Origin: an uncultured Verrucomicrobiae bacterium
GTDB taxonomy: Bacteria; Verrucomicrobiota; Verrucomicrobiia; Limisphaerales; Palsa-1400
Assembly (NCBI GenBank): GCA_963702845.1
Contig: OY969763.1
Span: 4,288,001 to 4,352,000, forward strand
Direction of reading: 5' to 3'
Length of the DNA stretch: 64,000 nucleotides
The number at the start of each line of letters is the position of its first letter. Position 1 is the stretch's first letter. The position numbers were made by a program, and so were the translations under genes. Of the stretch, positions 17,155 to 36,209 are shown piece by piece. The notes under the pieces were generated by a model. It was not told where the DNA came from, ran no database searches, and was given only the letters and a program-made list of their open reading frames with translations.

Positions 17155-17607
17155 ATGAGCTTTCTCGGAACCGCCCTGCAACGCATCAGCGACGAACGCG
17201 GACTGACCCACGCCGAAATTGCCCGCCAATCCGGCGTCTCCCGCAGCTTCATCAGCCGCGTGTGCGCCGGCGAATCCCGCGACTTCAGTGATCAACATTT
17301 CGTCGCGATACTCAAAGTCTTCGCTGCCGATCCCAAGTCCCAGGCTGAGATCATCGCAGCACGTTGCACCGATGCCCGGCATCCAGCAGAAGCCGCCGAC
17401 GTCGCCGGTGCTGCTTTGGTTGAAATCACAATCAAACCCACCGGAAAGGCCGAGAAGGGCGAAATCGATCTGACGAACAGGAGCGAAAAATTTCATCTTA
17501 CAAAGGAAGTTGAGGACGCGATTGATTGGTTACGCAGTCAATGTCCAGTTAACCCCGAGCTCCAGCGCCACCTTGTTGGTTACGCCCGTTTGTTGCGCGG
17601 AAAGTAG
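17155..17607 (+). CDS. XRE-family repressor
   Basis: GLTHAEIARQSGVSRSFISRV HTH; divergent from the Xis-like gene. Confidence 0.85.
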   Translation: MSFLGTALQRISDERGLTHAEIARQSGVSRSFISRVCAGESRDFSDQHFVAILKVFAADPKSQAEIIAARCTDARHPAEAADVAGAALVEITIKPTGKAEKGEIDLTNRSEKFHLTKEVEDAIDWLRSQCPVNPELQRHLVGYARLLRGK

Positions 17608-18079
17608 CGTCTGACCGGCTCGAGAAGCGGACTTTCCGCCGGTTGATTAAGCGTGTCCTGATAAAGCAGCAAATACTTACGTCCCATTTTTGAGCCTCGT
17701 CAGCTATTTGCCGCGACCGGCTTTTCTTCAACGTGCGAATTGCGTTGATAACATTTCGGATGACCGTTTTTTCTGTTTCGGGCAGTGCCGCCCACCACTC
17801 TGGTAACTGTGAGACATTTGTTTTCATGCCGTCCATTTTACAGAGGGGGGTTGGACAGTTACGGGGTGTCACCCCATGAAAGTTATTCACAATTCTGCCT
17901 CGGGTTACGGAAACCACTGATAGTTAACCGGTAATCGTAACAAAAACACTACGCGAACCCTTCCTGATGCTTAGTTCGAATTTCAGGAGGGATGACCTGC
18001 CGCATAACGTCTGCTCATTCTACAAAACCTTTCTTAGCCTTGCGGTCGAGTCCCGGCGCTGTCAAAAGTGCCCAGCATT

Positions 18080-18571
18080 TCACCGCTTGAACTTCCACTT
18101 ACGATTATGGACATCGACAGCCTCAATTTTTCGTTCATCCGTGACGGCCATCATCGTTCCATTAAGAATTGGGACTGAAATGTACCGACCTCCTGGCATT
18201 CTGTATCGGCGATAGCGATTAGGATAATAAAGATATCCAGCGTCATCGCCTGCCGTCGACCAGTCTATTTTGAACGGCCCGAAAGCAACGAATGTCGCGT
18301 TAGACACACGCCCGCTGCTAACACCGGAATCATTTGTGTTGAACGTCGACTTTCCATCAGCGCGCAGGAACCAAGTATAATCTATGACCTCGGGAGACAC
18401 GCTCTGTCTGGTCAGTAAAAATGCGCCATTTGTTCCACCCATCCGCAGCAAGATAACATTGTTGCACGCAATAAGCTCTGGGCCAGTGTTGCTCGGCCGG
18501 CATTTCATCACTGAAAACCAGACCGCCGCCCAGGAGGCAACGAAAAACAATAATATCCACCGTTTCCTCAC
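18080..18571 (-). CDS. Hypothetical exported protein
   Basis: Signal-like N-terminus; an attC-like right core (GTTAGAC) lies at about 18596. Confidence 0.65.
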   Translation of the reverse strand: MRKRWILLFFVASWAAVWFSVMKCRPSNTGPELIACNNVILLRMGGTNGAFLLTRQSVSPEVIDYTWFLRADGKSTFNTNDSGVSSGRVSNATFVAFGPFKIDWSTAGDDAGYLYYPNRYRRYRMPGGRYISVPILNGTMMAVTDERKIEAVDVHNRKWKFKR

Positions 18572-18663
18572 GTGGGCGAAGCCTCGCAGCTCAGCGTTAG
18601 ACGTTCAAGGATCAATGGTCGCTTGCATTTGTCTGCACCAGAGCCATCATTTGGAAATTCAGG

Positions 18664-18726
18664 TATGAACCGGCCGTTCGTATATCAAAATTACCGCGAC
18701 ACCTCGTCGCATAATCATTGTTAGGC
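18664..18726 (+). repeat. attI-like site (family C, partial)
   Basis: tatgaac-N5-gttcgtatatcaaaat..cgcgac..gtcgcataa-tcattG|TTAGGC; complementary to GCCTAAC (19031). Confidence 0.7.
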
Positions 18727-18736
18727 AGCTTGCTCT

Positions 18737-19036
18737 ATGCTCGCACTAGGAAACATCAACCCAATCGTACTAGTCGGTGCTGTTTTCCTTATGTTCAATA
18801 TCGCGGCTATCGTAACGCTAATCAGAAGTTTCACCGGCAAGCGTGCAAGCCTTACTCTTTGGATATGGGCAGCGACTGCGTTCGTATTCGGATTAGGTAT
18901 TTCAGTTTTATTTCTCACAGACGGAACAGATTTTTCTGATGACTGGCCGGATTGGCTTCTTGCAATTGTGCCATTGGTTTGCGGTGGTGTTACGTGTTTA
19001 AGAATGCTATTCCTGCGACATGAAAAGGCGGCCTAA
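18737..19036 (+). CDS. Small membrane protein (cassette)
   Basis: 3 TM segments; bounded by complementary cores. Confidence 0.75.
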   Translation: MLALGNINPIVLVGAVFLMFNIAAIVTLIRSFTGKRASLTLWIWAATAFVFGLGISVLFLTDGTDFSDDWPDWLLAIVPLVCGGVTCLRMLFLRHEKAA

Positions 19037-19264
19037 CGATGGCGCTCCAGCGCCTATGAGGTTTGTCAATACGTAGTGTGCGTCGATGATAGTTTTTTTG
19101 GGGTTGATCGCGCGGAGCGCAGTGGAACGAAGCGCAGTCGCGCGCGGCAGGCGGTTGGACATTGGTTCAATCCGCACCTGTTGTTCTTCTCGAGTCTCCG
19201 CTTATCTGTTCCTCTTCAAAGTTCCTTTCTTATTTCTCTCAAAGCAGGTTGCGTGAAGTTTGCT

Positions 19265-19450
19265 GCATCGGTGTCGCCGCGTTTTGTGTGTCGGGAGTTT
19301 GTCCCGCACCAGCTCCTATCCGGACAGTTGAGATAAGACTCAACGCCCACTGTGTCTTACTTGCCTGACTGCGGCGACCGGGGAGTCCGCCCCTTCTAAC
19401 GGACGGATGAACGCAAGGTTCACCAGCTGAAGCTACGGACTGGACTCGCC
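19265..19450 (-). ncRNA. Putative bridge/seek RNA
   Basis: Two stem-internal-loop-stem units whose loops match the attC target and the IS circle junction. Confidence 0.7.
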
Positions 19451-19514
19451 CGATCGCAAATTGTTTCACGCTCTTAACTCTGGAGGTTCTACTCACGAAA
19501 AAATTAAATGTGGT

Positions 19515-20666
19515 TCACACGCCGACCCAGCCGAGGTCTGCCATGGTGCAACGGCCGGTTCGCCAGCGCCAGAGGTCCACGGCCAGTTGCCGGGCAAGGG
19601 CAATGACAGTTTTCTTCTTCATGGCCGTGCCGGCGGCAAGTTTGGTTTTCATTTTAAGTGCGGCCTTCCACCCCGGTTGCCACATCAGAAAACGCCAGAC
19701 CGCTTCCACCAGGATCGCTCTGACTCGTCCGTTGCCCATGCGATCGATGCTGCCGACGCGCCGTTTGCCTCCTGAACTGTGTTCGCCCGGGCAACATCCG
19801 GTGTAGCTGCCAATCTGTTTGCGATTGTGGAAGCGCTGCCAGTCGCACACTTCGCCTTCCAGTGTCACAAGAGTGATCTCGCCAAGGCCCTTGGGCCGTG
19901 GTTGTTCTTTGACCCGCGCAATCAGTTCCTCTTCCAGTTCCTGCCGTTGTGTCTCCATGGCGACGAGGACCTCGCGGAGCTTTTCGAGAACACCGAGCAG
20001 CCACGGATCGAGGGTGGAAAGTTTTTTCCAGTTGCGCGCTCCCCACCAGCGATGGGGCAGTTTGACGTGGCTGTATTCGGCGGCTTGGCCGTGACCGCGA
20101 TTGGCGAGCATGCGAATGGCTTTGTTGAGGAACTGTCTTCGTCGCGTGCCTTCGCGCTGGCGCTGCTCTTTGTCCGAAGGAATGCGGATGGGTGCAAGTT
20201 CGTTGATGTTGCCATCAACCCAGCGAGAGAGGCGCAGGCAAAGAGCGCGCGCGTCCAGCTTGTCGGTCTTGCGCTGGCCGTTGAGGGCAATCGGCGTGAT
20301 CAGAAAACTTTGCGCACCGGCGGCGACTAGTTCGCGATGGAGCACGAAGCCGAACCCACAGCTTTCCTGCACGCAGAAAACTTGCAGGCCTTCGCTGGTC
20401 CACTTCTGAACCTGGGCGATGAGTTGCTCACGGCTGAATTTGCGTGGCGCTTGGGGTGAAGCGTGATCACGTTGGGCTACCGCCATGATGAACTCCAGAT
20501 GCACGTCCAGGCCAAGCTTGAGAGCCGGTTTGCCGGCAAGCAGCACAGGACGTGGCAAAGGCTGGCGCGGCGGCACGTTTGCCAGCTTGCCCGCGGCAGG
20601 CACGCTGGTTAGGGTTGGGACTGTCATGTGGGGTTTGAGTAAATATGTTTTCATTTTCAAAAACAT
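19515..20666 (-). CDS. IS110-family transposase/recombinase
   Basis: GLDVH, QESCG and KTDKLDA (DEDD); GCCPGEHSSG catalytic Ser region. Start codon uncertain. Confidence 0.95.
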   Translation of the reverse strand: MFLKMKTYLLKPHMTVPTLTSVPAAGKLANVPPRQPLPRPVLLAGKPALKLGLDVHLEFIMAVAQRDHASPQAPRKFSREQLIAQVQKWTSEGLQVFCVQESCGFGFVLHRELVAAGAQSFLITPIALNGQRKTDKLDARALCLRLSRWVDGNINELAPIRIPSDKEQRQREGTRRRQFLNKAIRMLANRGHGQAAEYSHVKLPHRWWGARNWKKLSTLDPWLLGVLEKLREVLVAMETQRQELEEELIARVKEQPRPKGLGEITLVTLEGEVCDWQRFHNRKQIGSYTGCCPGEHSSGGKRRVGSIDRMGNGRVRAILVEAVWRFLMWQPGWKAALKMKTKLAAGTAMKKKTVIALARQLAVDLWRWRTGRCTMADLGWVGV

Positions 20667-20792
20667 CGTGACCCCGTGTGGGGCTGCGACTCAACCCTTC
20701 ATGACATCTGACGGCGGGACGCCGCTGGATTTGCAATTCTCGTGTCAGTGGCCCGCCGCCGCTGAGCTGAAACGTTATGCTCTGAGCACCTT

Positions 20793-21341
20793 GTGAAAAC
20801 AGCGACGAAATACTTTCTTCTCGCGGTTGGCGCAGTGACCGTGGTGCTTGTCGGCCTCGCCATTTGGCCGTCGGAGTTGGTCGCCTCGCCACGCACAACA
20901 CTTCGGATCATTGACCAAGATGCAAAACCGCTGGTCGGCGTCCGAGTCACGCGGCACTGGGATACATCCGAGCGGCAGAAGGGCGAAGATCAGCAGGTTA
21001 CCGACAACAGCGGTCAGGTCGCGTTCGCGCGAGTTGCTTTTGCCATCAGCCACCTCCAGCGCATCACCAGACCGTTGCTCATTTTTGTGCCGGTATCCTG
21101 TGGTCCCGGTTGGGAAATCTATGGCCATGCGGAGTTCGACATCTACTGGCCGGATGGTTACACGCTCAAATTCGACGACGGAGCATGGCGAAAAGCCAAT
21201 GCAACCTATGAGAACGACGACGGCATTCACATCTACGACCCGTTGCAGGCCCCGGACAAGAGTTACGTCGGGCTTTATACGTGGAACAAGAAAAGTGATT
21301 TTGCATACACACTTATGCTGTACAAGAGTGGACAGAAATGA
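20793..21341 (+). CDS. Exported protein with carboxypeptidase-regulatory-like domain (cassette)
   Basis: IIDQDAKPLVGVRV...TDNSGQV; bounded by GTTATGC and GCATAAC. Confidence 0.75.
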   Translation: MKTATKYFLLAVGAVTVVLVGLAIWPSELVASPRTTLRIIDQDAKPLVGVRVTRHWDTSERQKGEDQQVTDNSGQVAFARVAFAISHLQRITRPLLIFVPVSCGPGWEIYGHAEFDIYWPDGYTLKFDDGAWRKANATYENDDGIHIYDPLQAPDKSYVGLYTWNKKSDFAYTLMLYKSGQK

Positions 21342-21342
21342 A

Positions 21343-21376
21343 GCATAACCCGCCGCCGCTGAGCTGTGTGTTAGGC
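21343..21376 (+). repeat. Internally deleted attC
   Basis: GCATAAC-ccgccgccgctgagctgtgt-GTTAGGC. Confidence 0.7.
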
Positions 21377-21397
21377 AGCAAACAAACCGGAGCACGT

Positions 21398-21607
21398 ATG
21401 AACATGAAAAGCATCATTTCGAGAACCGAGTCTCTGCAGATTCTCAAGAATCAGCTTCGGAAGGATGCGCTGGAAAAGCGGGCGGCTGAGCTGAAGGACG
21501 CCAACGCGGAAAAGCGCGAGGCGATACTCGCTGAGATTGAGCGCAATATTCAGAGGGAAGTTAAGGAACGCGCATGGACCCCCGGCTTCGGCAGAGTGAT
21601 CCACTGA
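21398..21607 (+). CDS. Small hypothetical protein (cassette)
   Basis: ggag RBS; 5' part is duplicated at 28818. Confidence 0.7.
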   Translation: MNMKSIISRTESLQILKNQLRKDALEKRAAELKDANAEKREAILAEIERNIQREVKERAWTPGFGRVIH

Positions 21608-21621
21608 AGTATGCAAACCGA

Positions 21622-21673
21622 GCCCAACAATCGTGCTGGAGCGGCCGCCGGGACAACGCTGCGTTTTGAATCC
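21622..21673 (+). repeat. Left half of an attC, truncated
   Basis: GCCCAAC...ggagcggccgccgggacaacgctg, then fused to the family-B upstream sequence. Confidence 0.7.
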
Positions 21674-21703
21674 TGCCTTCAATCATTGCCCCGTTAAAAC
21701 CCC

Positions 21704-21755
21704 TTGTTTGCCTATTAAAAACATGCGAACAGTTGTTGTATATTAATTGTTAAGC
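21704..21755 (+). repeat. attI-like site (family B)
   Basis: Ends in G|TTAAGC, complementary to GCTTAAC (22047). Confidence 0.7.
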
Positions 21756-21767
21756 TTTTGTAGGGAA

Positions 21768-22052
21768 ATGCGATTTCATCAATCCAATTCACGATGGGGC
21801 ACGGGGCGACAAATTGCGGCAAGCATCATGGGCCTCTTGCTCGGCTTATGGCTCGACCTTCGCTACTTCCACCTCGGGCGTGTGCGAGGCTATCTACTTC
21901 TCATCTTCTGCATGCTTGGCAGCTACCTTGTGTTAACGCTGTTCTCCTTGGCATGGACCGGAATCGTAAGATTGTGGCGCAGCATCTTTCCCGCACGTCA
22001 GACCAAGGTCCATTTACCAGAATCAAAAAGGCATGACAGCACCTCGGCTTAA
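21768..22052 (+). CDS. Small membrane protein (cassette)
   Basis: 2 TM segments; complementary cores. Confidence 0.7.
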   Translation: MRFHQSNSRWGTGRQIAASIMGLLLGLWLDLRYFHLGRVRGYLLLIFCMLGSYLVLTLFSLAWTGIVRLWRSIFPARQTKVHLPESKRHDSTSA

Positions 22053-22133
22053 CATGCGCTGAGCTTGGTCGTTAAACATTCTTCACCCGCACGCTGCTCT
22101 CGATGATGCCCGCGCTGATGGCGTTTTAAACCC

Positions 22134-22185
22134 TTGTTCGCGGATTAAAAACATGCAAACTGTTGTCGCAGATAAATTGGTAGGC
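22134..22185 (+). repeat. attI-like site (family B)
   Basis: ttgttcgcggattaaaaacatgcaaactgttgtcgcagat-aaattG|GTAGGC. Confidence 0.65.
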
Positions 22186-22195
22186 CAAAGTCTCC

Positions 22196-22684
22196 GTGAA
22201 AAACATCGTAAAAATTCCACTCGGCATTTTTCTCGGACTTTGTGTGGTCCTGACAGGTATTCTCACAGTAAGCGGGCTCTGGTATTCCCTGCCCAAGCAG
22301 TGGCACTTCCACAAGGTTCTGAGAACCGTGGACTGCGCGGAAATCATCCGCAGTGCGAGTGGCGTGATTAGCCGGTCGCCGACAAATGAAATTTATTACA
22401 GGGGGAATGGTCTAACAAACTTGCCGCTATCTATTGTCGAATTAAAACCGGTTGGCGTGTATGTGCATTCCAACCACATGGTAATTGAGTTTCATGGCGG
22501 GGCTGAAGATTTTGGTTTATGGGTGGACGATTTGAAGGATGCGTGGGGTATCCATTCATATCCAATCCGTCCAACCGACAAATATTATGTTTCTCTTGTC
22601 GTCAAAAAAGATCCGAAGACGGGCGAACCAAGCGGTCCAGCGTACGGAAGCCAACCGTTCCGCCTAGACGCAAATCGAAAGTAA
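22196..22684 (+). CDS. Hypothetical membrane-anchored protein (cassette)
   Basis: N-terminal TM; 3' end runs into a truncated attC-like sequence. Confidence 0.7.
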   Translation: MKNIVKIPLGIFLGLCVVLTGILTVSGLWYSLPKQWHFHKVLRTVDCAEIIRSASGVISRSPTNEIYYRGNGLTNLPLSIVELKPVGVYVHSNHMVIEFHGGAEDFGLWVDDLKDAWGIHSYPIRPTDKYYVSLVVKKDPKTGEPSGPAYGSQPFRLDANRK

Positions 22685-22710
22685 GGACCGATTAATTCCC
22701 TCGTTACGCA

Positions 22711-22878
22711 CTCCATTTCCAATCGCGGATTTCCGGCATGTCGTCGCCGTGCTCGCGAGCGCGTTGTGTTGCGCTTGCTTCGCAGCGCCAGCATAACAAT
22801 AATCTCCTCAACCAATATGAACCAACCGTTCGTATATCAAAATCACCGCGACAGCGTGTCGCATAATCATAGTTGGCC
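22711..22878 (+). repeat. attI-like repeat (family C, 168 bp)
   Basis: Near-identical to 23484-23651; ends in G|TTGGCC, complementary to GGCCAAC (23369). Confidence 0.8.
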
Positions 22879-22887
22879 TGTGAGCGC

Positions 22888-23358
22888 ATGGTGACATTTC
22901 ACACAGCCCTAAAGTTCGTCGTGGGACACGTTCTCGCGGGCGCGGTTGTGATTCTTGGGACGCTGCTTGTGGCGTTGGCTTGCTACGTTATTGGGCTTGC
23001 CACCGCACCTCATGGCATTGACACCCCGGCGGCGGTGATCCCCGAGTTCCTCACGTTGATGTTCATGGTTGGAGTTTTTGCTTTGGTTGCTTCTACCGCT
23101 TCATTCCTGATCTCCGTGCTGCTGACATGGCTTCGCACGAAGCGGCACTTTCCGGCCTGGCTTCCAGTGGTCACCATTCCGCTCCTCACTTTCGTTGTCG
23201 TTCTGGTGATTTTTGGACGGACGCGCGACATGAGTTTTGTGGCGGTCGTGACGGGCATGGCATTTGTCTACTTTGGGATTTACTGGGTGCTTCTTACATC
23301 CTCGGGGGCCGTGCTGGACTTCCTCCGCAGGAAGTTATTTCGCCAAAAAGCAACATGA
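22888..23358 (+). CDS. 4-TM membrane protein (cassette)
   Basis: Hydrophobic; bounded by cores. Confidence 0.75.
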   Translation: MVTFHTALKFVVGHVLAGAVVILGTLLVALACYVIGLATAPHGIDTPAAVIPEFLTLMFMVGVFALVASTASFLISVLLTWLRTKRHFPAWLPVVTIPLLTFVVVLVIFGRTRDMSFVAVVTGMAFVYFGIYWVLLTSSGAVLDFLRRKLFRQKAT

Positions 23359-23368
23359 GAATCGTGGA

Positions 23369-23461
23369 GGCCAACAAGCGTGCTGGAGGCACGGGCCGGA
23401 TTGCCTCTTCGTTCCATGTTTTACATCCTCGGCTGGCCCTGCCTCAGCACCATCGTTAGAC
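23369..23461 (+). repeat. attC site
   Basis: GGCCAAC...gtgctg.gaggca.gggcc...ggccctgcctcagcac...GTTAGAC. Confidence 0.85.
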
Positions 23462-23483
23462 TGCTTCGCCCTTTCCCTACGAA

Positions 23484-23651
23484 CTCCATTTCCAATCGCG
23501 GATCTCCGGCATGTCGTCGCCGTGCTCGCGAGCGCGTTCTGTTGCGCTTGATTTGCAGCGGCAGCAGAACAATAGTCTCCTCAACCAATATGAACCAACC
23601 GTTCGTATATCAAAATCACCGCGATACCCCGTCGCATAATTATAGTTAGAA
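23484..23651 (+). repeat. attI-like repeat (family C)
   Basis: Ends in G|TTAGAA, complementary to TTCTAAC (23881). Confidence 0.8.
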
Positions 23652-23652
23652 G

Positions 23653-23871
23653 ATGGGACACGCGATGGCGAACCAAGAGGATGATCCAGATGCCGCAGCA
23701 CTCGCCGAGCGCTACCCGAGCTTGCGCCGAATCGGCGAGCGGATGAAGATTGAGTCCGGCCCACTGGCTGGAGAGCCGGTTGTGATTCGCAGGCGGCTCA
23801 CCGAGCGCGGAGTATTATTCACATTCAGATATGATGACGGAAAGGTTCGAGAGTGGGAGTGGTGGGATTGA
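23653..23871 (+). CDS. Small hypothetical protein (cassette)
   Basis: Bounded by complementary cores. Confidence 0.65.
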   Translation: MGHAMANQEDDPDAAALAERYPSLRRIGERMKIESGPLAGEPVVIRRRLTERGVLFTFRYDDGKVREWEWWD

Positions 23872-23880
23872 GACCGCTTG

Positions 23881-23973
23881 TTCTAACTATCGTGCTACAC
23901 TCGACGCGGCGATGACGCTTCTGTTTCAGTTCGAACATCGCGGACGCCGCGCGAGTGAGCGCCGGCGTTAGAC
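23881..23973 (+). repeat. attC site
   Basis: TTCTAAC...cactcg.cgcggcg...cgccgcgcgagtg...GTTAGAC. Confidence 0.85.
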
Positions 23974-23990
23974 CACTTCGGGAGGCACCA

Positions 23991-24641
23991 ATGCTTTTCG
24001 CAATTCTGGACTACATAAACTACAGACGCAGACGGGGACATTACAGCGATGAGAGTATCCGCAAAGAAGGTGGGCGTTTGGCCGCACCGGAGAACTTTCC
24101 CATGCTTCTAGATCTGGGTCCTCGGCACAGGTTTGTCTATCACACGCGGGACTCGTTTTTGAGTTGGCTGGTCATGTATTATACGGCGAGCGTTTGGAGT
24201 CACGTAGGAAACTTCACCGAGCGGGGACATATTATCGATGCAACGACGGCAGGTGTCATTGAGCATCCACTCTCAGACTACTTCGACGGAAAGAGCTACA
24301 TTATCATACTAGCGGCTAAAAAGGGCCTGGTTTCCGACGAGCAGCTTGCCAAATCTCTTGAGTGGGGACGTAGACAGATTGGCTGCGGATTCAATTGGCC
24401 GGGATTGCGGCGCTTCTTCTGGAGCATTGTCTTCGGTGCGCATGCTAATTATCGATTCCGTGTTTCTGGCGATATACTCATTTTGCTGTTGGTGCTATGT
24501 CCCCTGGCATATCTCAGTCACACCTTTGGCGTATTGCTTTTGCTCGTCTCAAGCCTATACGTTTTTATTGTTGTGATGAATACAACAAAGAGAAGGGCCA
24601 TGCGTCGGATGCTCACGGAGTCGGGCGTCAATTTGCGATGA
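23991..24641 (+). CDS. Permuted papain-like (YiiX/YaeF-like) domain plus C-terminal TMs (cassette)
   Basis: SVWSHVG...IDAT..GV..PL motif; the downstream catalytic Cys is not evident. Confidence 0.55.
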   Translation: MLFAILDYINYRRRRGHYSDESIRKEGGRLAAPENFPMLLDLGPRHRFVYHTRDSFLSWLVMYYTASVWSHVGNFTERGHIIDATTAGVIEHPLSDYFDGKSYIIILAAKKGLVSDEQLAKSLEWGRRQIGCGFNWPGLRRFFWSIVFGAHANYRFRVSGDILILLLVLCPLAYLSHTFGVLLLLVSSLYVFIVVMNTTKRRAMRRMLTESGVNLR

Positions 24642-24645
24642 CTGG

Positions 24646-24740
24646 GTCTAACAAAATCACTGCAGCCAACGCCGGATGGTGCAGTCAGTTCCGCTTTCGC
24701 GGTTCACGTCATCGGCCCGGCGCGGTTGAGTTCTATCGGC
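24646..24740 (+). repeat. attC site (right core degenerate)
   Basis: GTCTAAC is complementary to GTTAGAC (23967); cagcc.acgccgg...ccggcgcggttg. Confidence 0.7.
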
Positions 24741-24758
24741 CCTACACTTGATACGTAT

Positions 24759-25220
24759 ATGAAACGAGCTTTCTATTTGCTGTTGCTGATTTCGGGTATC
24801 TGCACCGCTCAAACGAAGTTTACCTTTTATCCCACGCAACACATTTTCACATTAGAAGGCAAAAGATACGCCACATCCATTGATGAAGCTGCACTTGAGG
24901 CAAGTCCGACATGGGACATGAGCAAACCTCCGCCGATCAGTTTCAAACAAGTAGTTGAGGTCGCTCGCAATGAGTTTGGAAAACGGCTGCGGGCCAAACC
25001 CGAATGGAGGGTTCGTTCGATCGAGCTTTACCCGGCGAACTCGCCGCACGAGGGAAAATGGTACTACGTAGTTTTGCTGGAACCTCAACCAAACGGAGGC
25101 CATACCGGAGAAAGTTTTACCACGCTGGTCGATTTTTCTGGCAAGCCGGGAAAGATAATATTGGACAGCGGCGACTCGTGGACGCAGCGCGAAAGCAAAG
25201 CGAACGGCAAAAGTCCCTAA
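24759..25220 (+). CDS. Hypothetical secreted protein (cassette)
   Basis: Signal peptide; ends at CCCTAAC. Confidence 0.7.
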   Translation: MKRAFYLLLLISGICTAQTKFTFYPTQHIFTLEGKRYATSIDEAALEASPTWDMSKPPPISFKQVVEVARNEFGKRLRAKPEWRVRSIELYPANSPHEGKWYYVVLLEPQPNGGHTGESFTTLVDFSGKPGKIILDSGDSWTQRESKANGKSP

Positions 25221-25249
25221 CGTAGTTCGTTAGGAGCATCCCAGCCATC

Positions 25250-25534
25250 ATGACAAATTCGGAGTGGAAGAACTGCATGAGGATCCTTCTTGCTGAACTC
25301 GAAGACGAGTTACCTTCCACCGTGTCCGCCGAAACCAAAACAGTGTTGCGGACATTTCGGAGTCGCCTTGACCTCAGGCATATGTCACCCGCAAACGTAA
25401 GCGGTTTGAGCGATCGTTGGAGGCGTGCATTCAGAGCAGCGCATCACTGCGAGGATCTGCGGAGCGATATATCAGCAAAGTTTTGCCGCAGACACTTGAG
25501 AGAGCGACGACCGCAGTCAATAGCGCTAGGTTAG
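25250..25534 (+). CDS. Hypothetical protein (cassette, possibly degraded)
   Basis: Follows GTTAGGA and aggag. Confidence 0.45.
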   Translation: MTNSEWKNCMRILLAELEDELPSTVSAETKTVLRTFRSRLDLRHMSPANVSGLSDRWRRAFRAAHHCEDLRSDISAKFCRRHLRERRPQSIALG

Positions 25535-25653
25535 CGCTTGCGGGCTGTCGCTCTTGAGCTGCGTTATGATTCCTCCGAAACATATCGCCTCCCCAAACTG
25601 ATTCACCGTCGCCCCAATCCACTCAATCGCATTCACCGCAGTGGCACGGGAGT

Positions 25654-26637
25654 TTACTCAACGGGCGTAAATTCGGTATCCAAACTGAATTCTGAACCGC
25701 CGGCGGCAACGGGTTCGCGAATATTCTTCAATGCGGCTTCCGCTCTCTGGAAAAGAACAACATTTTCGCGGGCCGTTATCAAAACTGCCTCGGCGTCCGA
25801 AGCCAGGGATCCAAACGCGCCCACAGCGACGATTGCTTTTTTCTGAACGACTAAGGGCGGTTGTTGAATTGCAAGAATCAGTGCTGGAACGGCGATCTCT
25901 GGATGTCGCTGAATCCGGCCAAGCGTTTCGGCAGCCGCACCTGCGACGTTTGAATCCATGTCTTGCAAGCAAACGACCACGTTGCTGACAACGCCGCTTG
26001 CCGGGGAGCCTATGGTGCCCAAGGCATTGAGAATTTCAACGCGACGGACTGAATTGTTGTTTTTGCGCAGCGCATTCGCAAGTGAAGGAACGGCGGCGGG
26101 CCCAATGGACATAAGCAGATGCGTCGCATCGTCATCTGCCGTCGAGCGTGAAGCCATTTCTTCCAGTTGCGGAATGGCGGGCACGGCCAAAGGCCCCAAC
26201 GTCTTCAATACATTAAATGCGATCAGGTTCTTCAGGTGACCGTGATTATAAACGCTACCGGCGAGCTGGCTTCGCCATGAACGAGGCACATACTTCGAGC
26301 TTCCAAAACAACGAAGTGCAAGTTTTTCGAAGGGATTTGGTCTGGCGGTGAGCCACTGCATCAACATCGGAACGGCATTCGTTCCGATGTTGATCAGGGC
26401 GTCTTCCGCTTCATGTTCGCGCGGCTTCAATGCCTGCCCAGGCTGCCCGGGAAACATAGGCAGGCCATACGTGTGGGTGATGTGCACATGGTAAAGCTGG
26501 AGCCATTCCGAAAGACGGATGTCTTTGTAGACCGGATCGGGAGCTTTGGGACGGCAGAAAGCGAACGCGAGCGCAGACGCAATACCGACAACGAGTAGAA
26601 GCAGCCATTTGGATTTGCGCGCCCAACTCATCTGCAC
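25654..26637 (-). CDS. HEAT-repeat protein with N-terminal anchor
   Basis: Repeated LGP.A.PAIP.L / AA..LG.I...PEIAVPAL motifs. Confidence 0.85.
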   Translation of the reverse strand: MQMSWARKSKWLLLLVVGIASALAFAFCRPKAPDPVYKDIRLSEWLQLYHVHITHTYGLPMFPGQPGQALKPREHEAEDALINIGTNAVPMLMQWLTARPNPFEKLALRCFGSSKYVPRSWRSQLAGSVYNHGHLKNLIAFNVLKTLGPLAVPAIPQLEEMASRSTADDDATHLLMSIGPAAVPSLANALRKNNNSVRRVEILNALGTIGSPASGVVSNVVVCLQDMDSNVAGAAAETLGRIQRHPEIAVPALILAIQQPPLVVQKKAIVAVGAFGSLASDAEAVLITARENVVLFQRAEAALKNIREPVAAGGSEFSLDTEFTPVE

Positions 26638-26691
26638 AGGAGCCTAGCGAAGTCATATGAAAATGAAAGAGTGATCAAAACAACCGGCCGT

Positions 26692-27867
26692 TCATTGCGG
26701 AGCGATCGCGTTGGGGGCACGATACCGGAGCAACAGTTGTTCGGCGGTGTCTGCGATTCGCGTTCGCAACGCTTCCGGTGCAACCACCGTCGCACGCGTC
26801 CCCCAACTCAACACCCATCGCTCGACTTCTTCCAACCCACTCAACCGCATCCGCATTCGTGATGCACCGCCCGGCATTTCCGTAATCTCCTGACTTGAAT
26901 GCCATTTCCGGCCGCGCAGTTGGTCCGTTGCAAAGGCGTCGAAGTCAATCACCACCTCATAATCACCGTCACCCTTCATCATCCCGAGGCTGTCGCGAAA
27001 ATAGTTTGCGGCATCGAATCTATTCGGTCGCGTGAACCGCTCAGCTAAAACCTGCGCCTTCCCCATGCGCGCCAGCGCGAAAGTCCGAATATCCGCACGC
27101 AACTCATCATGTCCCAGGAAATACCACCGATTATCAGAACACATCACATGATACGGATGCACCCGCCGCACGATCGCATCCTTCTCGCCTGCGTTCCGAT
27201 AAACAAACTCCATCACCTTCCGTTCCCGACGCGCCCGCGTCACCATCTCGAACAATTCCAGATCCGCGTCCTCCGGCGCAAACGGCCGAAACGACAACGC
27301 CTCTGCAAAATCCTCAACTGAAAACCGCTCCTTGCTATCCAACTGCGCTAACATCTTCTTGAACGCAGTCGCCAACAGCGGATGGAACGGCGTGCCGCGA
27401 TACTGCTCAATCGCTTTGTTCGCAACCAACCATGCAAACATCTCCTTCTCCGTAAGAGCCGACGCACCGGGAAATCCATTCACCTGCTTCGAATAATAAT
27501 ACCCGTGCCGCACCGCATCATATTCGATCGGCAGCGCGTAATGATCGCGCATGTAATCAATGTCCCGACAAATTGTTTTGTGCCCGATCTCAAGCTCTGC
27601 CGCCAACTGCATCGCGTTAACGCATCTGCCATCGGCAATCACCTGGTGAATCTTGAACATCCGTTCCAGCGGCCCGCGCCGCACCCGCTCCGGCTCCAAC
27701 TCCGCATCCTGTTTGCGTACACGCCGCAGCAACGCCTTTTCAGCCCTGCCGACATCCAGCCGCACCGTTTGTTTTGTTTCGTTTGTTTGACTCCCCTCGC
27801 CCATGTCCGAGAACAGTGAATCTGCGCGTTGAACCGAACCAATCTGTAGCTTTTTTATCATTTTCAT
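26692..27867 (-). CDS. HTH-WYL-WCX transcriptional regulator
   Basis: LAAELE...KTI.RDI, RRVHPY..WYFLG.D..R..RTF.L.R and WVLSWG motifs. Start may lie further downstream. Confidence 0.92.
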   Translation of the reverse strand: MKMIKKLQIGSVQRADSLFSDMGEGSQTNETKQTVRLDVGRAEKALLRRVRKQDAELEPERVRRGPLERMFKIHQVIADGRCVNAMQLAAELEIGHKTICRDIDYMRDHYALPIEYDAVRHGYYYSKQVNGFPGASALTEKEMFAWLVANKAIEQYRGTPFHPLLATAFKKMLAQLDSKERFSVEDFAEALSFRPFAPEDADLELFEMVTRARRERKVMEFVYRNAGEKDAIVRRVHPYHVMCSDNRWYFLGHDELRADIRTFALARMGKAQVLAERFTRPNRFDAANYFRDSLGMMKGDGDYEVVIDFDAFATDQLRGRKWHSSQEITEMPGGASRMRMRLSGLEEVERWVLSWGTRATVVAPEALRTRIADTAEQLLLRYRAPNAIAPQ

Positions 27868-27886
27868 CCCCGAATCCTACCAACCT

Positions 27887-27911
27887 CACTTGGACAAAGG
27901 CTGTCCAAGTG
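27887..27911. promoter_or_regulatory. Perfect palindromic operator upstream of the WYL gene
   Basis: CACTTGGACA-N5-TGTCCAAGTG. Confidence 0.7.
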
Positions 27912-28097
27912 AAAATCTTTTTTTGGGGGCACCAGCGCGTGGCGACAGACGTAAAAGAACGTTACCCGACTATTGGCTCAAGGGCTGCAATGGCTGGCCA
28001 CTCCCAGTTGACTGTCCACACTCAGAGGCGCAGCATACACCACGTAAATCAACCCGATGTGAGGTAATATGTTGTTGGTTAGACTGCGAGTATTTCT

Positions 28098-28286
28098 ATG
28101 AACAACAAAACGTCCGCGCAAAGTGCCCGAAGGTGGGGATGGCCGATTCTCGGTATCATCGCTTTCGGAGTTTTGATGGGCGCACGAAAGCAGTTTCACT
28201 CTATTTGGTTGCGTTCGTTGGTCGCAGCGTGCGCGTTCGCAGTTCTCGCAGTTTCGTTACCGTTATTTCGGAGGACCAGAAATTGA
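28098..28286 (+). CDS. Small 2-TM protein
   Basis: Hydrophobic ORF coupled to the next gene. Confidence 0.55.
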   Translation: MNNKTSAQSARRWGWPILGIIAFGVLMGARKQFHSIWLRSLVAACAFAVLAVSLPLFRRTRN

Positions 28287-28693
28287 AAACGCTGTCTAAC
28301 AAAAGCGCCCCAACTTCGCTCAAAGTTCTATGCGCCGTCGTCATAATTTTGCTTCTCGCTTGCGTTGGCTTTTTGGCGAACGCCGTTTGGACGAATTTCT
28401 GGTGGAAGCAGCAGGTTTACGGGCTCGCACGATATCAAGGTGCCACCCGAGCGCTGCACGATTTTCAGTCTGGCAGGCTGCGACTCTTTGTCGTTGCGGG
28501 CGAGCGCGACACCGATAAATTTTCCGGCACAAATGAGGGTCCGTTTGATATTCGGTTTCCGCAGTATTATCAGAAGTCATTCCCTATGCGTTATTCGGTC
28601 GAGCAGATGGTTGACATGTATAACGAAAAAATGCGCTATATGCGTGAGCGTCCAGACAAGTTCCTGAGCACGACAAACAGCCCGAAAAAATGA
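28283..28693 (+). CDS. Hypothetical membrane-anchored protein (cassette)
   Basis: ggagga RBS with TTG start; followed by attC. Confidence 0.65.
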   Translation: MKTLSNKSAPTSLKVLCAVVIILLLACVGFLANAVWTNFWWKQQVYGLARYQGATRALHDFQSGRLRLFVVAGERDTDKFSGTNEGPFDIRFPQYYQKSFPMRYSVEQMVDMYNEKMRYMRERPDKFLSTTNSPKK

Positions 28694-28703
28694 CACGTCC
28701 CCA

Positions 28704-28796
28704 CCCTAACTTTCGCGCTCCATCGAACGGCTGGTTGACGCTACGTTTGCAATCCATGAGTCAGTGGCCCGCCGCCGCTAATCTGAATTGTTGGGC
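28704..28796 (+). repeat. attC site
   Basis: CCCTAAC...caatccatgagtcagtggcccgccgccgct...GTTGGGC; same family as 912-1004. Confidence 0.8.
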
Positions 28797-28807
28797 AGGA
28801 AAAAAGT

Positions 28808-28922
28808 CGGAGCACGTATGAACATGAAAAGCATCATTTCGAGAACCGAGTCTCTGCAGATTCTCAAGAATCAGCTTCGGAAGGATGCGCTGGAAAAGCG
28901 GGCGGCTGAGCTGAAGGACGCC
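28808..28922 (+). pseudogene. Truncated identical copy of the cassette ORF at 21398
   Basis: 115 bp identical to 21388-21502. Confidence 0.9.
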
Positions 28923-28982
28923 TGTTTAACCCAACCAATTTCGCCTTTGCGCCGACCAATTCACCACCGTCGTTTCGCGCCT

Positions 28983-30021
28983 CTATCCTTTCTTACTGGT
29001 TGTTTTTTGAAGTTTTAGGTATAGCGCCGCTGCCCCGAGACTTAGCACTGTAAACAAAATATAAACACCCAACCGATCCGATTTCGGTGTTTGACCGTGC
29101 ATCGCAACGTGGGCTGGTTGTCGCGGTTTAACCAAAACCCCATTTGTATTGCGGACGAAGAGCACGTTATTGCTATAGAAATTGGTAAGCTGGATGTTCG
29201 TTGTTGCGAGCCGTGCAACAGAAAAAAAGTCGTTCGGCAACCCAGCAGGGGCAGTTTTTACTTCAAGAAGTGCCAATTCCAAAATGGCCTTCATTTCACC
29301 TTCCACTGGTGACGAGATAGTCATGCGTTCAGGGAACCCACCGAGCTGGGTAGCAAGAACGGGAAATACATACGAAATTATCCTGAACGGCTTCACTCTT
29401 CCCTTTAATCGCAGGGAAAGTTTAACAGGCACATCGTTCGATAAGCTAAGCTCGCCCAGAACCTCGTTTCCACTCGGCGCAATAGCAGTTAATTCAGTGC
29501 CATGCCACTCGATTTTCTGAAGGTCGAAATCGGGAACTCCCATGTTCAAAAACTGACCAACATAAGCGGCAAATACACCCCCTGAAGAATCTACCGCGTT
29601 TTCCGAGTTAGAAACGCCAACAGATACCAACTTGCCAGCAACCTGATAGGTTTTTCCTTCATTCCGACCAACTAATTGAGTCCGATCTTCCCAACGAGGA
29701 CCATTTGAATCGCTCGCAACTATCGAGAAAAAAAAGTCGTTCCCTTGTCGACCGCCCTCGCAAAAGAATGTGATCGGCATCTCTACCTTCGGTGCTTTTG
29801 GCCCAACACTGAATGTAGGTACTCTTGCCGCGAAACCGTTCTACCGGAACAGGAGAGGTAAGCGCTCGCTTGAAAAAGGAAACTAAATCCAGGTCTCCGG
29901 ATTGGATTGTAGCAGCGCCAGCACTATGTGTAATGCCCAGAGAAGCAACGATAAAAACAAAGATTAGGGTAACATGCCGCCAAAGAGGGAACCTAATACC
30001 AGACAACGAGTCAAATATCAT
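28983..30021 (-). pseudogene. Frameshifted secreted protein with C-terminal TM
   Basis: Two overlapping ORFs (29659-30021 and 28983-29780). Confidence 0.55.
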
Positions 30022-30191
30022 ACGCCAATTGCCGCAATTTTCGACAAAAAAACAATGTATTGCTCAAGACCTAATCGTGTCAAAACAACGGTCACGCGTA
30101 TATCACTCAATTGGGGTATTCTTACGATGCAAGATCCACGGCCACCTTGTCTATCCACCCGAAGCGTCAGGAGTTTGAACCTCAAAAACCC

Positions 30192-30241
30192 TTGTTCGCG
30201 GATTAAAATTATGCGAACAGTTGTCGCATTAATTGTTATGC
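30192..30241 (+). repeat. attI-like site (family B)
   Basis: Ends in G|TTATGC; the cassette ends with GCATAAT (30625). Confidence 0.7.
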
Positions 30242-30630
30242 CTAAGCGTCACAAAATCCCTTTTGCCAATCGGAACCACTCCGGATGGTGGATTTTTCGT
30301 GAGGTGGAGCAGTGGGTATCGAAGAACAAGAAGCCATCGCCCCGAAGTCGTTATCCGATCTGGGAGAACACCCGATTGCTCCGCGCGAAGAACCGGAAGG
30401 AAGCATACCGCAAAGCATTGAAGCTGGGCCGCGAAGGGCATCCGTCTAAAACCAAGGAGGGCGAGTGGCGCTTCGCAGGCATTTCCATGCTCCTGCCGGT
30501 CTATGAAGACATCGAAGACGGAGCAGAGATTCTCTGGGTGGATCGTGGCTCTCTGCGACTCAGCAGCATCCGGAAGCTGGTCAAATCTAAGCGCCAGCTC
30601 CCCATTTTCGATGACAACGAAGAAGCATAA
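30238..30630 (+). CDS. DUF4288-like protein (cassette)
   Basis: WENT.LL.A....EAY.KA..LG...WRFAGI..L....DGAE. Confidence 0.7.
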   Translation: MPKRHKIPFANRNHSGWWIFREVEQWVSKNKKPSPRSRYPIWENTRLLRAKNRKEAYRKALKLGREGHPSKTKEGEWRFAGISMLLPVYEDIEDGAEILWVDRGSLRLSSIRKLVKSKRQLPIFDDNEEA

Positions 30631-30692
30631 TTATCGCGCTGCATTTCACGCGGGGACTCCGCCAGCAACGAAGGCGTTCTCAGTAGATGCAG

Positions 30693-31146
30693 GTTTCGGC
30701 ACCACCACCGTCTTCGCAACCTCCATCGCGCCAAACCTGCGCGCCACCTCCAAACACTTGTTCGCGGATTAAAAATGTGCGAACTATTGGCGTATGGCCA
30801 CATTGATTTACTGACTGGGGAGGCAGTGCTTGAAGGAGATGTCGTAAAACTCCACACTTGGTCATGTGTTGTCGTTACGGTCGTTCAGCCAGGTAGCCCG
30901 GACTGGGATGATTACGGAGGCATTTCACTGAAATGTTTGGAAGGCGGGCCGATTCGACTTGAGCGCGTCAATGAGGATCTCATTTTAGTCAGTCGGAAGG
31001 CTTCGCGATGAATTGCCTAACGAGACTATAGTTTCGGCACCACACCGTCTTCGCAACCTCCATCGCGCCAAACCTGCGCGCCACCTTTAAAACATTGTTC
31101 GCCGATAAAAACTATGCGAACAGTTGTCGCAGATTAATGGTTAAGC
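30693..31146 (+). repeat. Two tandem leader plus family-B units (30693-30790 and 31031-31146)
   Basis: About 57-bp near-identical leader, each followed by ttgttcgc...gcgaac; the second ends in G|TTAAGC. Confidence 0.8.
30775..31011 (+). CDS. Small hypothetical protein
   Basis: 78-aa ORF between the repeats; start uncertain. Confidence 0.5.
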   Translation: MCELLAYGHIDLLTGEAVLEGDVVKLHTWSCVVVTVVQPGSPDWDDYGGISLKCLEGGPIRLERVNEDLILVSRKASR

Positions 31147-31290
31147 CGGCACTCCATATGTCCCCGAAACGCTTATTCAAATTTGCGCTTTTCACCATAG
31201 CTATCGTCGGGTTTGTCGTTTACCGCACGTTCGCAAACAACCGTTACTGCATCTCGGGAAAATGCGGGTTGCAGAAATCTTGAACGATCG

Positions 31291-32013
31291 ATGCGCACCT
31301 TCCTCACAGCCAACTGGCGGTATTTGTTGATGCTTAACTACGCTGTCGATCCAGAACTACTCCGCCCCAACATTCCACCTGGCGTCGAACTGGATACTTG
31401 GAACGGCGAGAACTATCTGAGCGTTGTTGGCTTTCTTTTCCTGAGCACCAAAGTGTTCGGTGTTTCCCTGCCGCTACACTCCGATTTCGAAGAGGTGAAT
31501 CTCCGTTTCTATGTGCGACGCCGCGCTCCGGACGGCTGGCGACGTGGCGTTGTTTTTATCAAAGAAATCGTACCTCGACGTCTAATCGCGACCGTCGCTC
31601 GAACCTGCTACAACGAACCTTACGCCGTAATGCCAATGACCCACGCCATTGAGACGGTGAACGACAAATTACGCAACGGCGGGTCGGTAGAATACGCATG
31701 GCGTTATCAAGGTAAGTGGAACTCAATCTCCGCCAAGACCGTTGGCCCTCTGCAGCCGGTGATTGAAGGTTCAAAAGAAGATTTCATCACCAAGCACCAC
31801 TGGGGCTACACAGCCCAACCGAATGGCACGTGTAAAGAATACCACGTCGCGCACGAACCTTGGAATATTTGGCAGGTTGAAAAAGCCGTTTTGAATTGCG
31901 ACATTGCGCCAATTTACGGCGCGCAGTTCGTAAAACCATTAAGCGCACTTCCGGATTCAGCGTTTGTGGCGGACGGTTCACCCATAACCGTTAGTGCCGG
32001 AGTGACCATTTGA
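31291..32013 (+). CDS. DUF2071 (YqjF) family protein
   Basis: FLTANWR.L.MLNY.VDP..L...F.EVNLRFYV...HYWG-like motifs. Confidence 0.85.
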   Translation: MRTFLTANWRYLLMLNYAVDPELLRPNIPPGVELDTWNGENYLSVVGFLFLSTKVFGVSLPLHSDFEEVNLRFYVRRRAPDGWRRGVVFIKEIVPRRLIATVARTCYNEPYAVMPMTHAIETVNDKLRNGGSVEYAWRYQGKWNSISAKTVGPLQPVIEGSKEDFITKHHWGYTAQPNGTCKEYHVAHEPWNIWQVEKAVLNCDIAPIYGAQFVKPLSALPDSAFVADGSPITVSAGVTI

Positions 32014-34853: not shown

Positions 34854-36209
34854 TTACGCCGCCAGCGCCACCGGATGCGCGACAATCTTCGCTGCCCGCT
34901 CACGTTCCGCTTTGGCTTTGAATCCGCCAATGCTCTCTGGAGTGATCGTAAACCAGTTCTTCGCATCTTTTTCGGTCACCAATTCGCGGTAATGCTCAAA
35001 AATCATTTGCGGGCTGTTCCCGGCCTCCAGCGCCACTTGCGCCGCGCTTTTAACATCAGCCAGCCGATAGCTGCAGAACGAATGACGCAGCGCGTTGTGT
35101 TTCCATTCCGCTTGTGGCGCGAGAAACTTTTCCGGATTGTGCGGATCAACCGGCCGCGTGCTCGCAATCAATCGCTGAATTGCGTTCGGCACATTGTCCA
35201 GGTCCACCACAGGTCCGCGCACCTTCGCATGATTCGTGAGCCATTCCTTGAGATTCGGAACAATCGGCACCAGCCGACGCGAATTCGTTTTTGCGATGCT
35301 CGCATCAACCGTTATGTAACCAGTCTCCAAATTTATCTTCGCCCAGTCCAGCCGCTCGATCTCTGCGCTACGCAAACCAGCAAACGCGCCGATGGCTAAA
35401 AAAGGAATCAAATTATCGGGCGCAAACCCGAGCAGAAGTGAAAACTCTGCCGTCGTGAAAATCTCTACCTCATCATTCTTGGTTTTCCAGAGCGGCACCG
35501 CCTCCATTCCATTCCAGTCCGCGGGCAAATACTTCTGCGCTTTGGCGAATGAAAATAGCGTCTGAATCCCAAGCCGGAAATTATTCCGCGTGCGATTCGA
35601 CACGGAAACCTTTGGCGCCTTCTTATCCACCTTTGAAGTTTCGCGCGTGAGCCCCTGCAACCACACCTTGATTTCTAATCCGTCGACAGCGCTGATCTGT
35701 TTCGGAAACTCCCGGGCAAACTTTCCAACACGCGAGGTCAAATCATCGATATATCGATCGCTTAGCCCCTCATCGCGCTTGGCCTTGATCATTTCATTGA
35801 ATGCCTCCGTGACCGTCTTGGATGGCAGATCCATCAGATTTTGCGCGGCATAATATCGCGCAACCTCGACCAGCGACTTTCCGCGCACCAGCCTCTTAGC
35901 ATCGCGGTATTCGGCAGCGACCGTATCCAGCGAAAGCCCAAATTCTTTGACCCACTCATTGGCGCGAACATAAGCGAGACTTTCCGTTCCTGACAACCGG
36001 ACCGCCTTGGCTTCGCCCTGGGAAAGCATATTAACCTTCGTTTGCGCGTGCAGTTCCGCTGCGGGGAGGTCAGCGAACGCTTTCCGTTTCCTGACAGCTC
36101 CTTCATACCAGGCAACCGTGAATGCATCGCACCCGTGTGAGGGGGTTTTGTAGATGGTGGCGCGCGTCTGGCCAATGCGGATTACCTTGGGAAAATCGGC
36201 TTTTTTCAT
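34854..36209 (-). CDS. Tyrosine recombinase/integrase
   Basis: GLRSAE, AKT, HNALRHS, GNS and HY catalytic residues. Confidence 0.95.
   Translation of the reverse strand: MKKADFPKVIRIGQTRATIYKTPSHGCDAFTVAWYEGAVRKRKAFADLPAAELHAQTKVNMLSQGEAKAVRLSGTESLAYVRANEWVKEFGLSLDTVAAEYRDAKRLVRGKSLVEVARYYAAQNLMDLPSKTVTEAFNEMIKAKRDEGLSDRYIDDLTSRVGKFAREFPKQISAVDGLEIKVWLQGLTRETSKVDKKAPKVSVSNRTRNNFRLGIQTLFSFAKAQKYLPADWNGMEAVPLWKTKNDEVEIFTTAEFSLLLGFAPDNLIPFLAIGAFAGLRSAEIERLDWAKINLETGYITVDASIAKTNSRRLVPIVPNLKEWLTNHAKVRGPVVDLDNVPNAIQRLIASTRPVDPHNPEKFLAPQAEWKHNALRHSFCSYRLADVKSAAQVALEAGNSPQMIFEHYRELVTEKDAKNWFTITPESIGGFKAKAERERAAKIVAHPVALAA

Follow-up and report, generated by a model that had tools for sequence, protein, structure and literature searches.

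The element and its surroundings

The window, the whole stretch of 64,000 nucleotides that was analysed, contains an insertion sequence (IS) on the minus strand which lies between two cassette ORFs and splits an attC site. The boxes of this site (R'', L'', L' and R') are named according to what we take to be the usual attC anatomy.

18737..19036, plus strand: upstream cassette ORF, 99 aa, without Pfam match; its stop lies within R''
19031..19052, plus strand: first half of the split attC, with R'' at 19031-19037, L'' at 19044-19051 and the target core CG at 19051-19052
19053..20709, minus strand: whole IS, 1,657 bp, with the same ends in all six full genome copies
19053..19069, minus strand: right end, with TTGACA at 19069-19064, the right inverted repeat at 19065-19056 and a 3-nt extension
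19515..20666, minus strand: DEDD/IS110 recombinase, 383 aa (NCBIfam NF033542, Pfam PF02371, conserved motifs)
20692..20702, minus strand: left subterminal inverted repeat, imperfect (9/11 with one gap), read from sequence
20703..20709, minus strand: left extension, 7 nt, starting with the donor core AG
20710..20780, plus strand: second half of the split attC, with L' at 20761-20767 and R' at 20774-20780
20793..21341, plus strand: downstream cassette ORF, 182 aa, with DUF6795 below the cut-off

The boundaries 19053-20709 had already been proposed in an earlier reading of the letters alone (the sequence-only reading), and they are borne out, with the 383-aa ORF (20666-19515) inside and the three strings quoted in that reading present where it placed them. 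Its claim that the attC was split without duplication also stands, because empty sites in the same genome hold no extra bases between ...CAGCG and GACGG, for example C1:4836674, where nothing separates the two. When the flanks are joined after removal of the IS, they give a hairpin-forming attC-like site; the element sits on the attC bottom strand without duplication, as described for IS1111-attC elements. The left end starts with AG in 57/58 relatives and in 6/6 genome copies. The inverted repeats are set in from the left end by 7 nt and from the right end by 3 nt, the spacing of IS1111 elements, whose repeats are 11-13 bp long and near perfect; the repeat is 9/11 with a gap here and 10/11 in most relatives.

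Joining of the ends to a circle would bring together a -35 box (TTGACA) and a weak -10 box (CATGAA) over a 17-nt gap, from which we infer that the circle junction may act as a promoter; a promoter scan of the linear copy gave one site versus 0.6 expected. Joined IS ends were absent from patchy contigs that cover only pieces, from 4 of the 20 listed runs, a result which is neutral on circles, and one contig end (X3) is an empty attC variant that runs on into GACGG.

The recombinase scores 171 bits against NF033542 (IS110 family RNA-guided transposase; cut-off 140), and it matches PF02371, with PF01548 not reaching E 0.001. Most relatives start near M5 (20654) of the ORF. The residues D54, E101, D135 and D138 and the C-terminal S298 in GCCPGEHSSG were located and are conserved, giving the DEDD RuvC-like and serine domains of the IS110 family in its broad sense; the role of S298 as catalytic serine is based on the G--P----SG motif (PMC11187229). 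The family is large: of 8,000 clusters scored, 2,692 reached E 1e-50 or better. The transposase stop is followed by ca. 460 bp of non-coding sequence.

The cassette array that holds the IS is enclosed by an integrated element (ca. 10191-36209) with genes for a primase/polymerase with DUF5906, a PIF1 helicase, a PD-(D/E)XK nuclease, two HTH proteins, a WYL/WCX protein and a tyrosine integrase (34854-36209). No integron integrase scored over the cut-off in the genome, which is 89.8% complete. A non-coding module of ca. 200 bp, found at ca. 23380-23640 and 22705-22870 and partially at 18665-18735, has 29 BLAST matches in the genome, located at cassette arrays, and ends in GTTAG at the cassette start. 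It contains the reverse complement of a short C-terminus, presumably phosphoketolase-like, and may be an attI- or promoter-like unit.

Six full copies of the IS are present in the genome. Comparison of their flanks, a check proposed with the sequence-only reading, places five of the six in the same attC motif (YAAC-N-GCGCTYCAGCG^GACSG), and in relatives the guides described below vary with the flanks. These five copies have at most three internal differences, and the second attC arm is truncated in two of them, in both cases beside the ca. 200-bp module.

A predicted two-loop RNA and its guides

The non-coding region 3' of the transposase is predicted to encode a bridge/seek RNA with the following parts, all on the minus strand.

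19376..19455: target-binding domain of the predicted RNA; outer helix paired in 99.6% of cells
19425..19433: guide 1, GCUUCAG + CU, pairing with the right flank on its IS-sense (attC bottom) strand; its CU is turned towards the core
19396..19402: guide 2, CCGUU + AG, pairing with the left flank on its attC top strand; its AG is turned towards the core
19276..19375: donor-binding domain, closed by the helix GCCGC/GCGGC and enclosing an inner hairpin (19349-19321)
19353..19356: GACA, a tentative second guide for the donor, weak and perhaps structural
19311..19319: donor guide AUAGG + AG (19319-19313) with candidate handshake CU (19312-19311)

From 84 collected loci, 41 distinct non-coding regions were aligned, namely the one from the window and those of 40 loci out of 42 that were unique and parsed; the two others are L014, omitted for its long insert, and L055, which is the locus of the window. 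In the two-loop fold 96.3% of cells are paired and 19 of 40 pairs are changed on both sides, versus at most 49.4% pairing in slid controls, the structure being mostly obtained from RNAalifold on the same alignment, so that the scoring favours it. The outer helix of the target domain shows compensatory change in 9/17 pairs over the 41 sequences. Folded singly, the non-coding region has no unusual stability (z -1.37), so covariation is the one source of support for the fold. An Rfam scan of 17500-32000 gave one chance-level match and no family. A structured non-coding end with target-matching guides, as expected of the IS110 family in the broad sense, is thus found by covariation. The stems drawn in the sequence-only reading fared differently: the alignment upholds its inner hairpin in the target loop (83.6% of cells paired) as well as GCCGC/GCGGC, the core of its second stem, but only 61% of cells are paired in its outer stem (AGUCCG/CGGACU), whose covariation (0.027) is below that of shuffles (0.042) and which gives way to an alternative register with the upstream GAGUCC/GGACUC, which lies within the helix paired in 99.6% of cells.

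The guides proposed from the letters also separate. The string GCUUCAGC pairs at 7/8 positions plus a G:U at the window copy and at 8/8 at two others, and it covaries in relatives. The string CCGUCCG (19400-19406), which was to match across the junction, does so at 7/7 positions in only 2/40 loci, both of this genome, and at 3/7 in 24/40; the CCGU within it is invariant scaffold in the alignment, and the covarying register of guide 2 is the 5 nt preceding the conserved AG. The proposed identity of AUAGGAG with the circle junction ATAGG-AG holds well, as distant relatives (the 35-42% clade) with CATAGC right ends carry AUAGCAG, and L070, with a CATAGG end, retains AUAGGAG.

Counted over the loci, minus two duplicates and two with unparsed guides, guide 1 fits the right flank with 264/308 Watson-Crick and 15 wobble pairs (44 loci, 35 complete), and guide 2 fits the left flank with 206/240 and 8 wobble pairs (48 loci, 24 complete, the others mostly with a loose outermost base). 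Permutation of the distinct guide classes gave 41 versus 30.8 for guide 1 (5 of 20,000) and 40 versus 25.9 for guide 2 (7 of 20,000), p-values that are overstated because the loci are related and some repeat one IS. Guide and flank have changed together in L010 and L040 (ACUGGAG/ACUUU) as well as in L056, L063, L020 and L065, and these joint changes make natural retargeting visible. Exceptions are L064, where guide 1 fits at 1/7, and L065, where it fits after a one-base shift only; in L026 and L064 the common guide 2 is a better fit than their own.

The sixth genome copy (C1:441906-443569), 95% identical and 98.4% at the protein level, splits a non-attC ORF of 320 aa, which we take to be zinc peptidase-like. 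Its guide 1 has G for U, the state of most relatives. Counted at its insertion site, the main guides leave one mismatch and its own guides two. Since the site fits the main guides better, this copy is a near-cognate off-target insertion that may have been mobilised in trans.

The base after AG agrees with the partner base +3 in 45/47 loci for guide 2 and in 41/44 for the donor guide, positions which barely vary. By analogy with IS621 these are candidate handshake bases, including A19395 next to guide 2. In L065 and L009 the insertion register is one base off relative to guide 1, and in L065 the handshake base of the donor loop is now U, along with flank base +3. GACA (19353..19356) is conserved, yet it does not track the GACA/GGCA variation of the left end, and RNAalifold pairs it internally. 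In L003 the non-coding region ends, just 3' of the transposase, at a DNA copy of guide 2 (CGGTT-AG-ATG) followed by a target-like string, possibly the outcome of a self-targeted deletion.

Core dinucleotide and target choice

The last two bases are CU in guide 1 and AG in both guide 2 and the donor guide. The right flanks of the distant clade carry AG in 10/10 cases, a true duplicated core, and none has the attC GTT. Of the relatives' right flanks of sufficient length, 36/42 have the attC GTT. In the attC clade the 44 right flanks start with CG (30), GG (10) or AG (4), the second base G being kept in 44/44; in two of the ten GG junctions the GG consists of two extra bases, after which an ordinary site follows. 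Among empty sites of the most frequent type, G occupies this position of the top strand in 176 cases, from 73/301 genomes, and T in 0, so the mismatch belongs to the target and does not stem from a misplaced boundary. The core dinucleotide is not identical in target and donor, in contrast to IS621-type elements, where it is. Comparison of these loci shows a CT/AG core kept in RNA and donor, with CG or CC in the attC target. Every core remains on the left arm that it came with, so that the product follows the top strand, and the junctions of the attC clade fit top-strand exchange alone, i.e. a top-strand-dominated integration.

Top strands are cut 3' of CT in IS621 (PMC11208158), and integration of CazIS110-1 is top-strand-dominant (10.1101/2025.10.25.684509). 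The donor base A at 3/20 junctions of the common site type versus 0/176 empty sites suggests occasional exchange of the other strand and could also be assembly error; the difference between right (3/44) and left (0/58) core conversion falls short of significance (p 0.077). Arm symmetry lends weak support to core conversion, as disagreement with the other arm is seen at 2/2 AG junctions and also at 2/16 CG junctions. In L011 and L032, from unrelated data sets, two extra G's follow the IS end before an attC that is normal in other respects, a repair signature or an assembly error. L019 is an in-frame insertion at a near-cognate site with a GG core in an ORF which is presumably carB-like. The strict-AG relatives L075, L076 and L078 are flanked by short palindromic, REP-like repeats and no attC. 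Within transposase residues 99-103, after the catalytic E, the attC clade has ESC, the strict-core relatives EAG and the tight IS1111 clade EAC, a difference that might determine core tolerance.

For IS621 a strong preference for CT in the target is described, with reprogramming at the first base only (PMC11208160), although 15/117 of its off-targets lack CT; IS1111 elements are described as adding no extra bases at insertion (PMC11187229). Since, in addition, the left end of ISPa21 has GG versus TG in its right flank, a relaxed core may be common in the IS1111 group and merely undescribed as such. Our literature search, for which most subscription papers were outside the scope, returned no natural target-side core mismatch and no paper on this lineage.

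In a strict attC census (nine empty sites, known to miss some), the main guide is unable to pair with the G variant present in six of the nine, which is consistent with an occupancy limited by the guides. A loose genome-wide census (at least 306 matches, mostly noise) was dropped. Pairing may be necessary and the attC hairpin be read as well, with a folded or locally open target permitting the core mismatch. This would complement the reading of a core kept in RNA and donor, and we give it a serious chance, if somewhat below even. The genome holds 29 unoccupied zero-mismatch sites (wobble allowed), of which by eye ca. 1-2 are attC; among the 29 are C1:3701116, which matches an occupied 14-mer, and C1:5906930, whose core is AG. 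A one-mismatch attC, on the other hand, is occupied; a gate formed by the target stem-loop is reported for ISPpu10 (10.64898/2026.03.19.712850). Purging of insertions in genes would, however, give the same pattern, NG cores also occur at the ORF off-targets (the sixth copy and L019), and one matching attC (C1:1727925) is empty.

A less probable alternative does without a functional core: CU and AG would be conserved as scaffold or protein contacts, and joining would occur by cutting at a point. The 'no additional bases' description of IS1111 implies such point joining, CU and AG are able to pair together, the target A is missing in 40/44 junctions, and L065 behaves as if one core base were missing. 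Nevertheless, in 10/10 distant relatives these positions of the RNA stand opposite a perfect AG, the second base is G in all 44 right flanks, the donor guide itself contains AG, and donor A is found at a minority of common-type junctions and never at empty sites, as if the core were sometimes exchanged. These points make a coreless mechanism improbable.

Lineage, mechanism and relation to known systems

The nearest named relatives of the element are from Verrucomicrobiota, in agreement with the earlier assignment to this phylum, and the best plasmid matches, among the 40 matches listed, are below 33% identity. ISPa21, located in NZ_CP041734 by its smr-qacEdelta1 context (the record is labelled only IS110), shares 21.6% identity with the transposase, versus at least 46% among the tested members of the IS1111-attC group. 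In trees, ISPa21 groups with IS4321, IS5708 and IS884, from which the window IS stands apart on a separate branch (18-22% identity), nested among strict-AG relatives of the same order; strict-AG, non-attC relatives (35-41% identity) lie between it and ISPa21, ISSso6/ISEc45 form the sister group (support 95 and 100), and a tree constrained to unite the attC elements is worse by 125 log units (AU p 4e-36), values from quick searches with few references and a long-branch warning, ISPa21 being the one IS1111-attC representative and ISKpn4, ISPst6 and ISPa25 being absent. The transposase is also longer than those of the tight IS1111 clade (383 versus 330-350 aa) and does not cluster with IS4321, IS5708, IS884 or ISPa21. 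In common with the IS1111 group as a whole, the non-coding region lies downstream of tnp and the top-strand match precedes the bottom-strand match.

The insertion point differs as well. It lies 14-15 nt from the attC GTTAG in the window clade and 6 nt in ISPa21, i.e. 8-9 nt apart, and a review table gives 6 nt for ISKpn4, ISPst6 and ISPa25. The filing with established IS1111-attC elements implied by the sequence-only reading is thus not supported, given 21.6% identity to ISPa21, no grouping and a different insertion point. That the window IS is an ordinary described member (ISKpn4/ISPst6/ISPa21/ISPa25) with guides as first drawn is largely refuted and very improbable: the attC strand, the 3' non-coding region, the 7/3-nt extensions, the top-strand match 5' of the bottom-strand match (as in PMC11187229) and a likewise mismatched ISPa21 (left end GG, right flank TG) agree with it, but the sequence distance with strict-AG non-attC relatives in between (AU p 4e-36), the insertion point 8-9 nt away and the failure of the earlier guide register in 38/40 loci do not.

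The separate clade (21.6%, AU test), together with insertion 8-9 nt further into the attC, makes attC targeting look convergent. Convergence is the simplest reading of transposase tree and insertion point, and attC targeting was probably acquired independently of ISKpn4/ISPa21, by a lineage that arose among relatives whose targets are not attC and whose core is strictly AG.

We consider it highly probable that the window holds an intact IS110-family element of a diverged 3'-RNA (IS1111-like) branch that is guided into attC by a bridge RNA. The earlier description of an apparently intact, RNA-guided and attC-targeting IS110-family element with a 3' non-coding RNA is to this extent supported by the comparisons. 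In the proposed mechanism, the ends would join to a circle (CATAGG-AG-ATG) and thereby form a promoter, whose transcript would be processed to the two-loop RNA. Guide 1 would open the attC bottom strand over the L'' box, guide 2 would pair with the top strand just inside this box, and the donor loop would hold the circle junction. On the attC top strand the geometry is that of IS621, with 7 nt plus core, then 5 nt, and a cut that would fall 3' of the core. Wobble U's at both variable guide positions would make both Y variants of the host sites readable.

We lean, by a modest margin over even chances, towards the wider view that a large Verrucomicrobial lineage represents a second attC origin, has dropped the need for the core T on the target side but kept it in RNA and donor, and records top-strand-templated integration in its junctions. 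If so, it would be a natural bridge system that needs just one fixed base in the target core, and the shift from strict AG to NG would explain the core-less look of IS1111 versus the duplicated core of IS621. Bridge-editing designs match CT or GT cores between sites (10.1101/2025.05.14.653916), so a natural enzyme with variation at the T position of its targets could widen the target space of bridge editing. Exchange of the bottom strand is disputed between structural papers and two preprints, and the strict-core and relaxed-core clades form a ready pair for asking about it. A second attC origin at a different position would mean that cassette arrays repeatedly attract guide-programmed elements, and the large family is a source of natural retargeting events.

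ISfinder places ISSso6 and ISEc45, the nearest named transposases found, under IS1111. They share the GLDVH motif with the window IS. In ISSso6 the left end is likewise AG, and a 3' string, ATATC-AG, is identical to the junction of this element. Unlike the window clade with its ESC, these elements have YEAG, their identity is 25-27%, and no attC target was seen for them. The genome also contains three copies of a second IS110 transposase (C1 near 98283, 1599938 and 2836108), ca. 27% identical, which groups with ISSso6/ISEc45.

A top-strand-dominant integration and a hairpin-bearing target are likenesses to CazIS110-1 and ISPpu10, for which preprints give experimental evidence; for the window IS they are deduced from sequence.

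The window IS works like a bridge/seek-RNA IS1111 element, and by its transposase and insertion point it is outside the described IS1111-attC group. RNA-guided attC insertion is established for ISKpn4 and ISPst6, so the headline of the sequence-only reading is not new. With ISKpn4, ISPst6, ISPa21 and ISPa25 (PMC11187229) the element has in common the attC target, insertion on the bottom strand without duplication, the 3' non-coding RNA, the order of the target matches and the 7/3-nt extensions. Unlike these elements, it has imperfect repeats and an N-terminal extension of ca. 50 aa in the transposase. The apparent guide of ISPa21 carries CG at the core, whereas the RNA of the window carries the donor's AG; ISPa21 itself pairs a left end of GG with a right flank of TG. 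The available text of PMC5034289 contains nothing on attC-targeting IS.

In contrast to IS621, the RNA of the window lies in the right end, the sequence match is weak (E 0.31), and the target core is unmatched at the T position. As in IS621 (PMC11208160, PMC11208158), the RNA has two loops, with the target loop 5' of the donor loop, a 7+2 and 5+2 guide geometry, a CT core on the other strand and candidate handshake bases.
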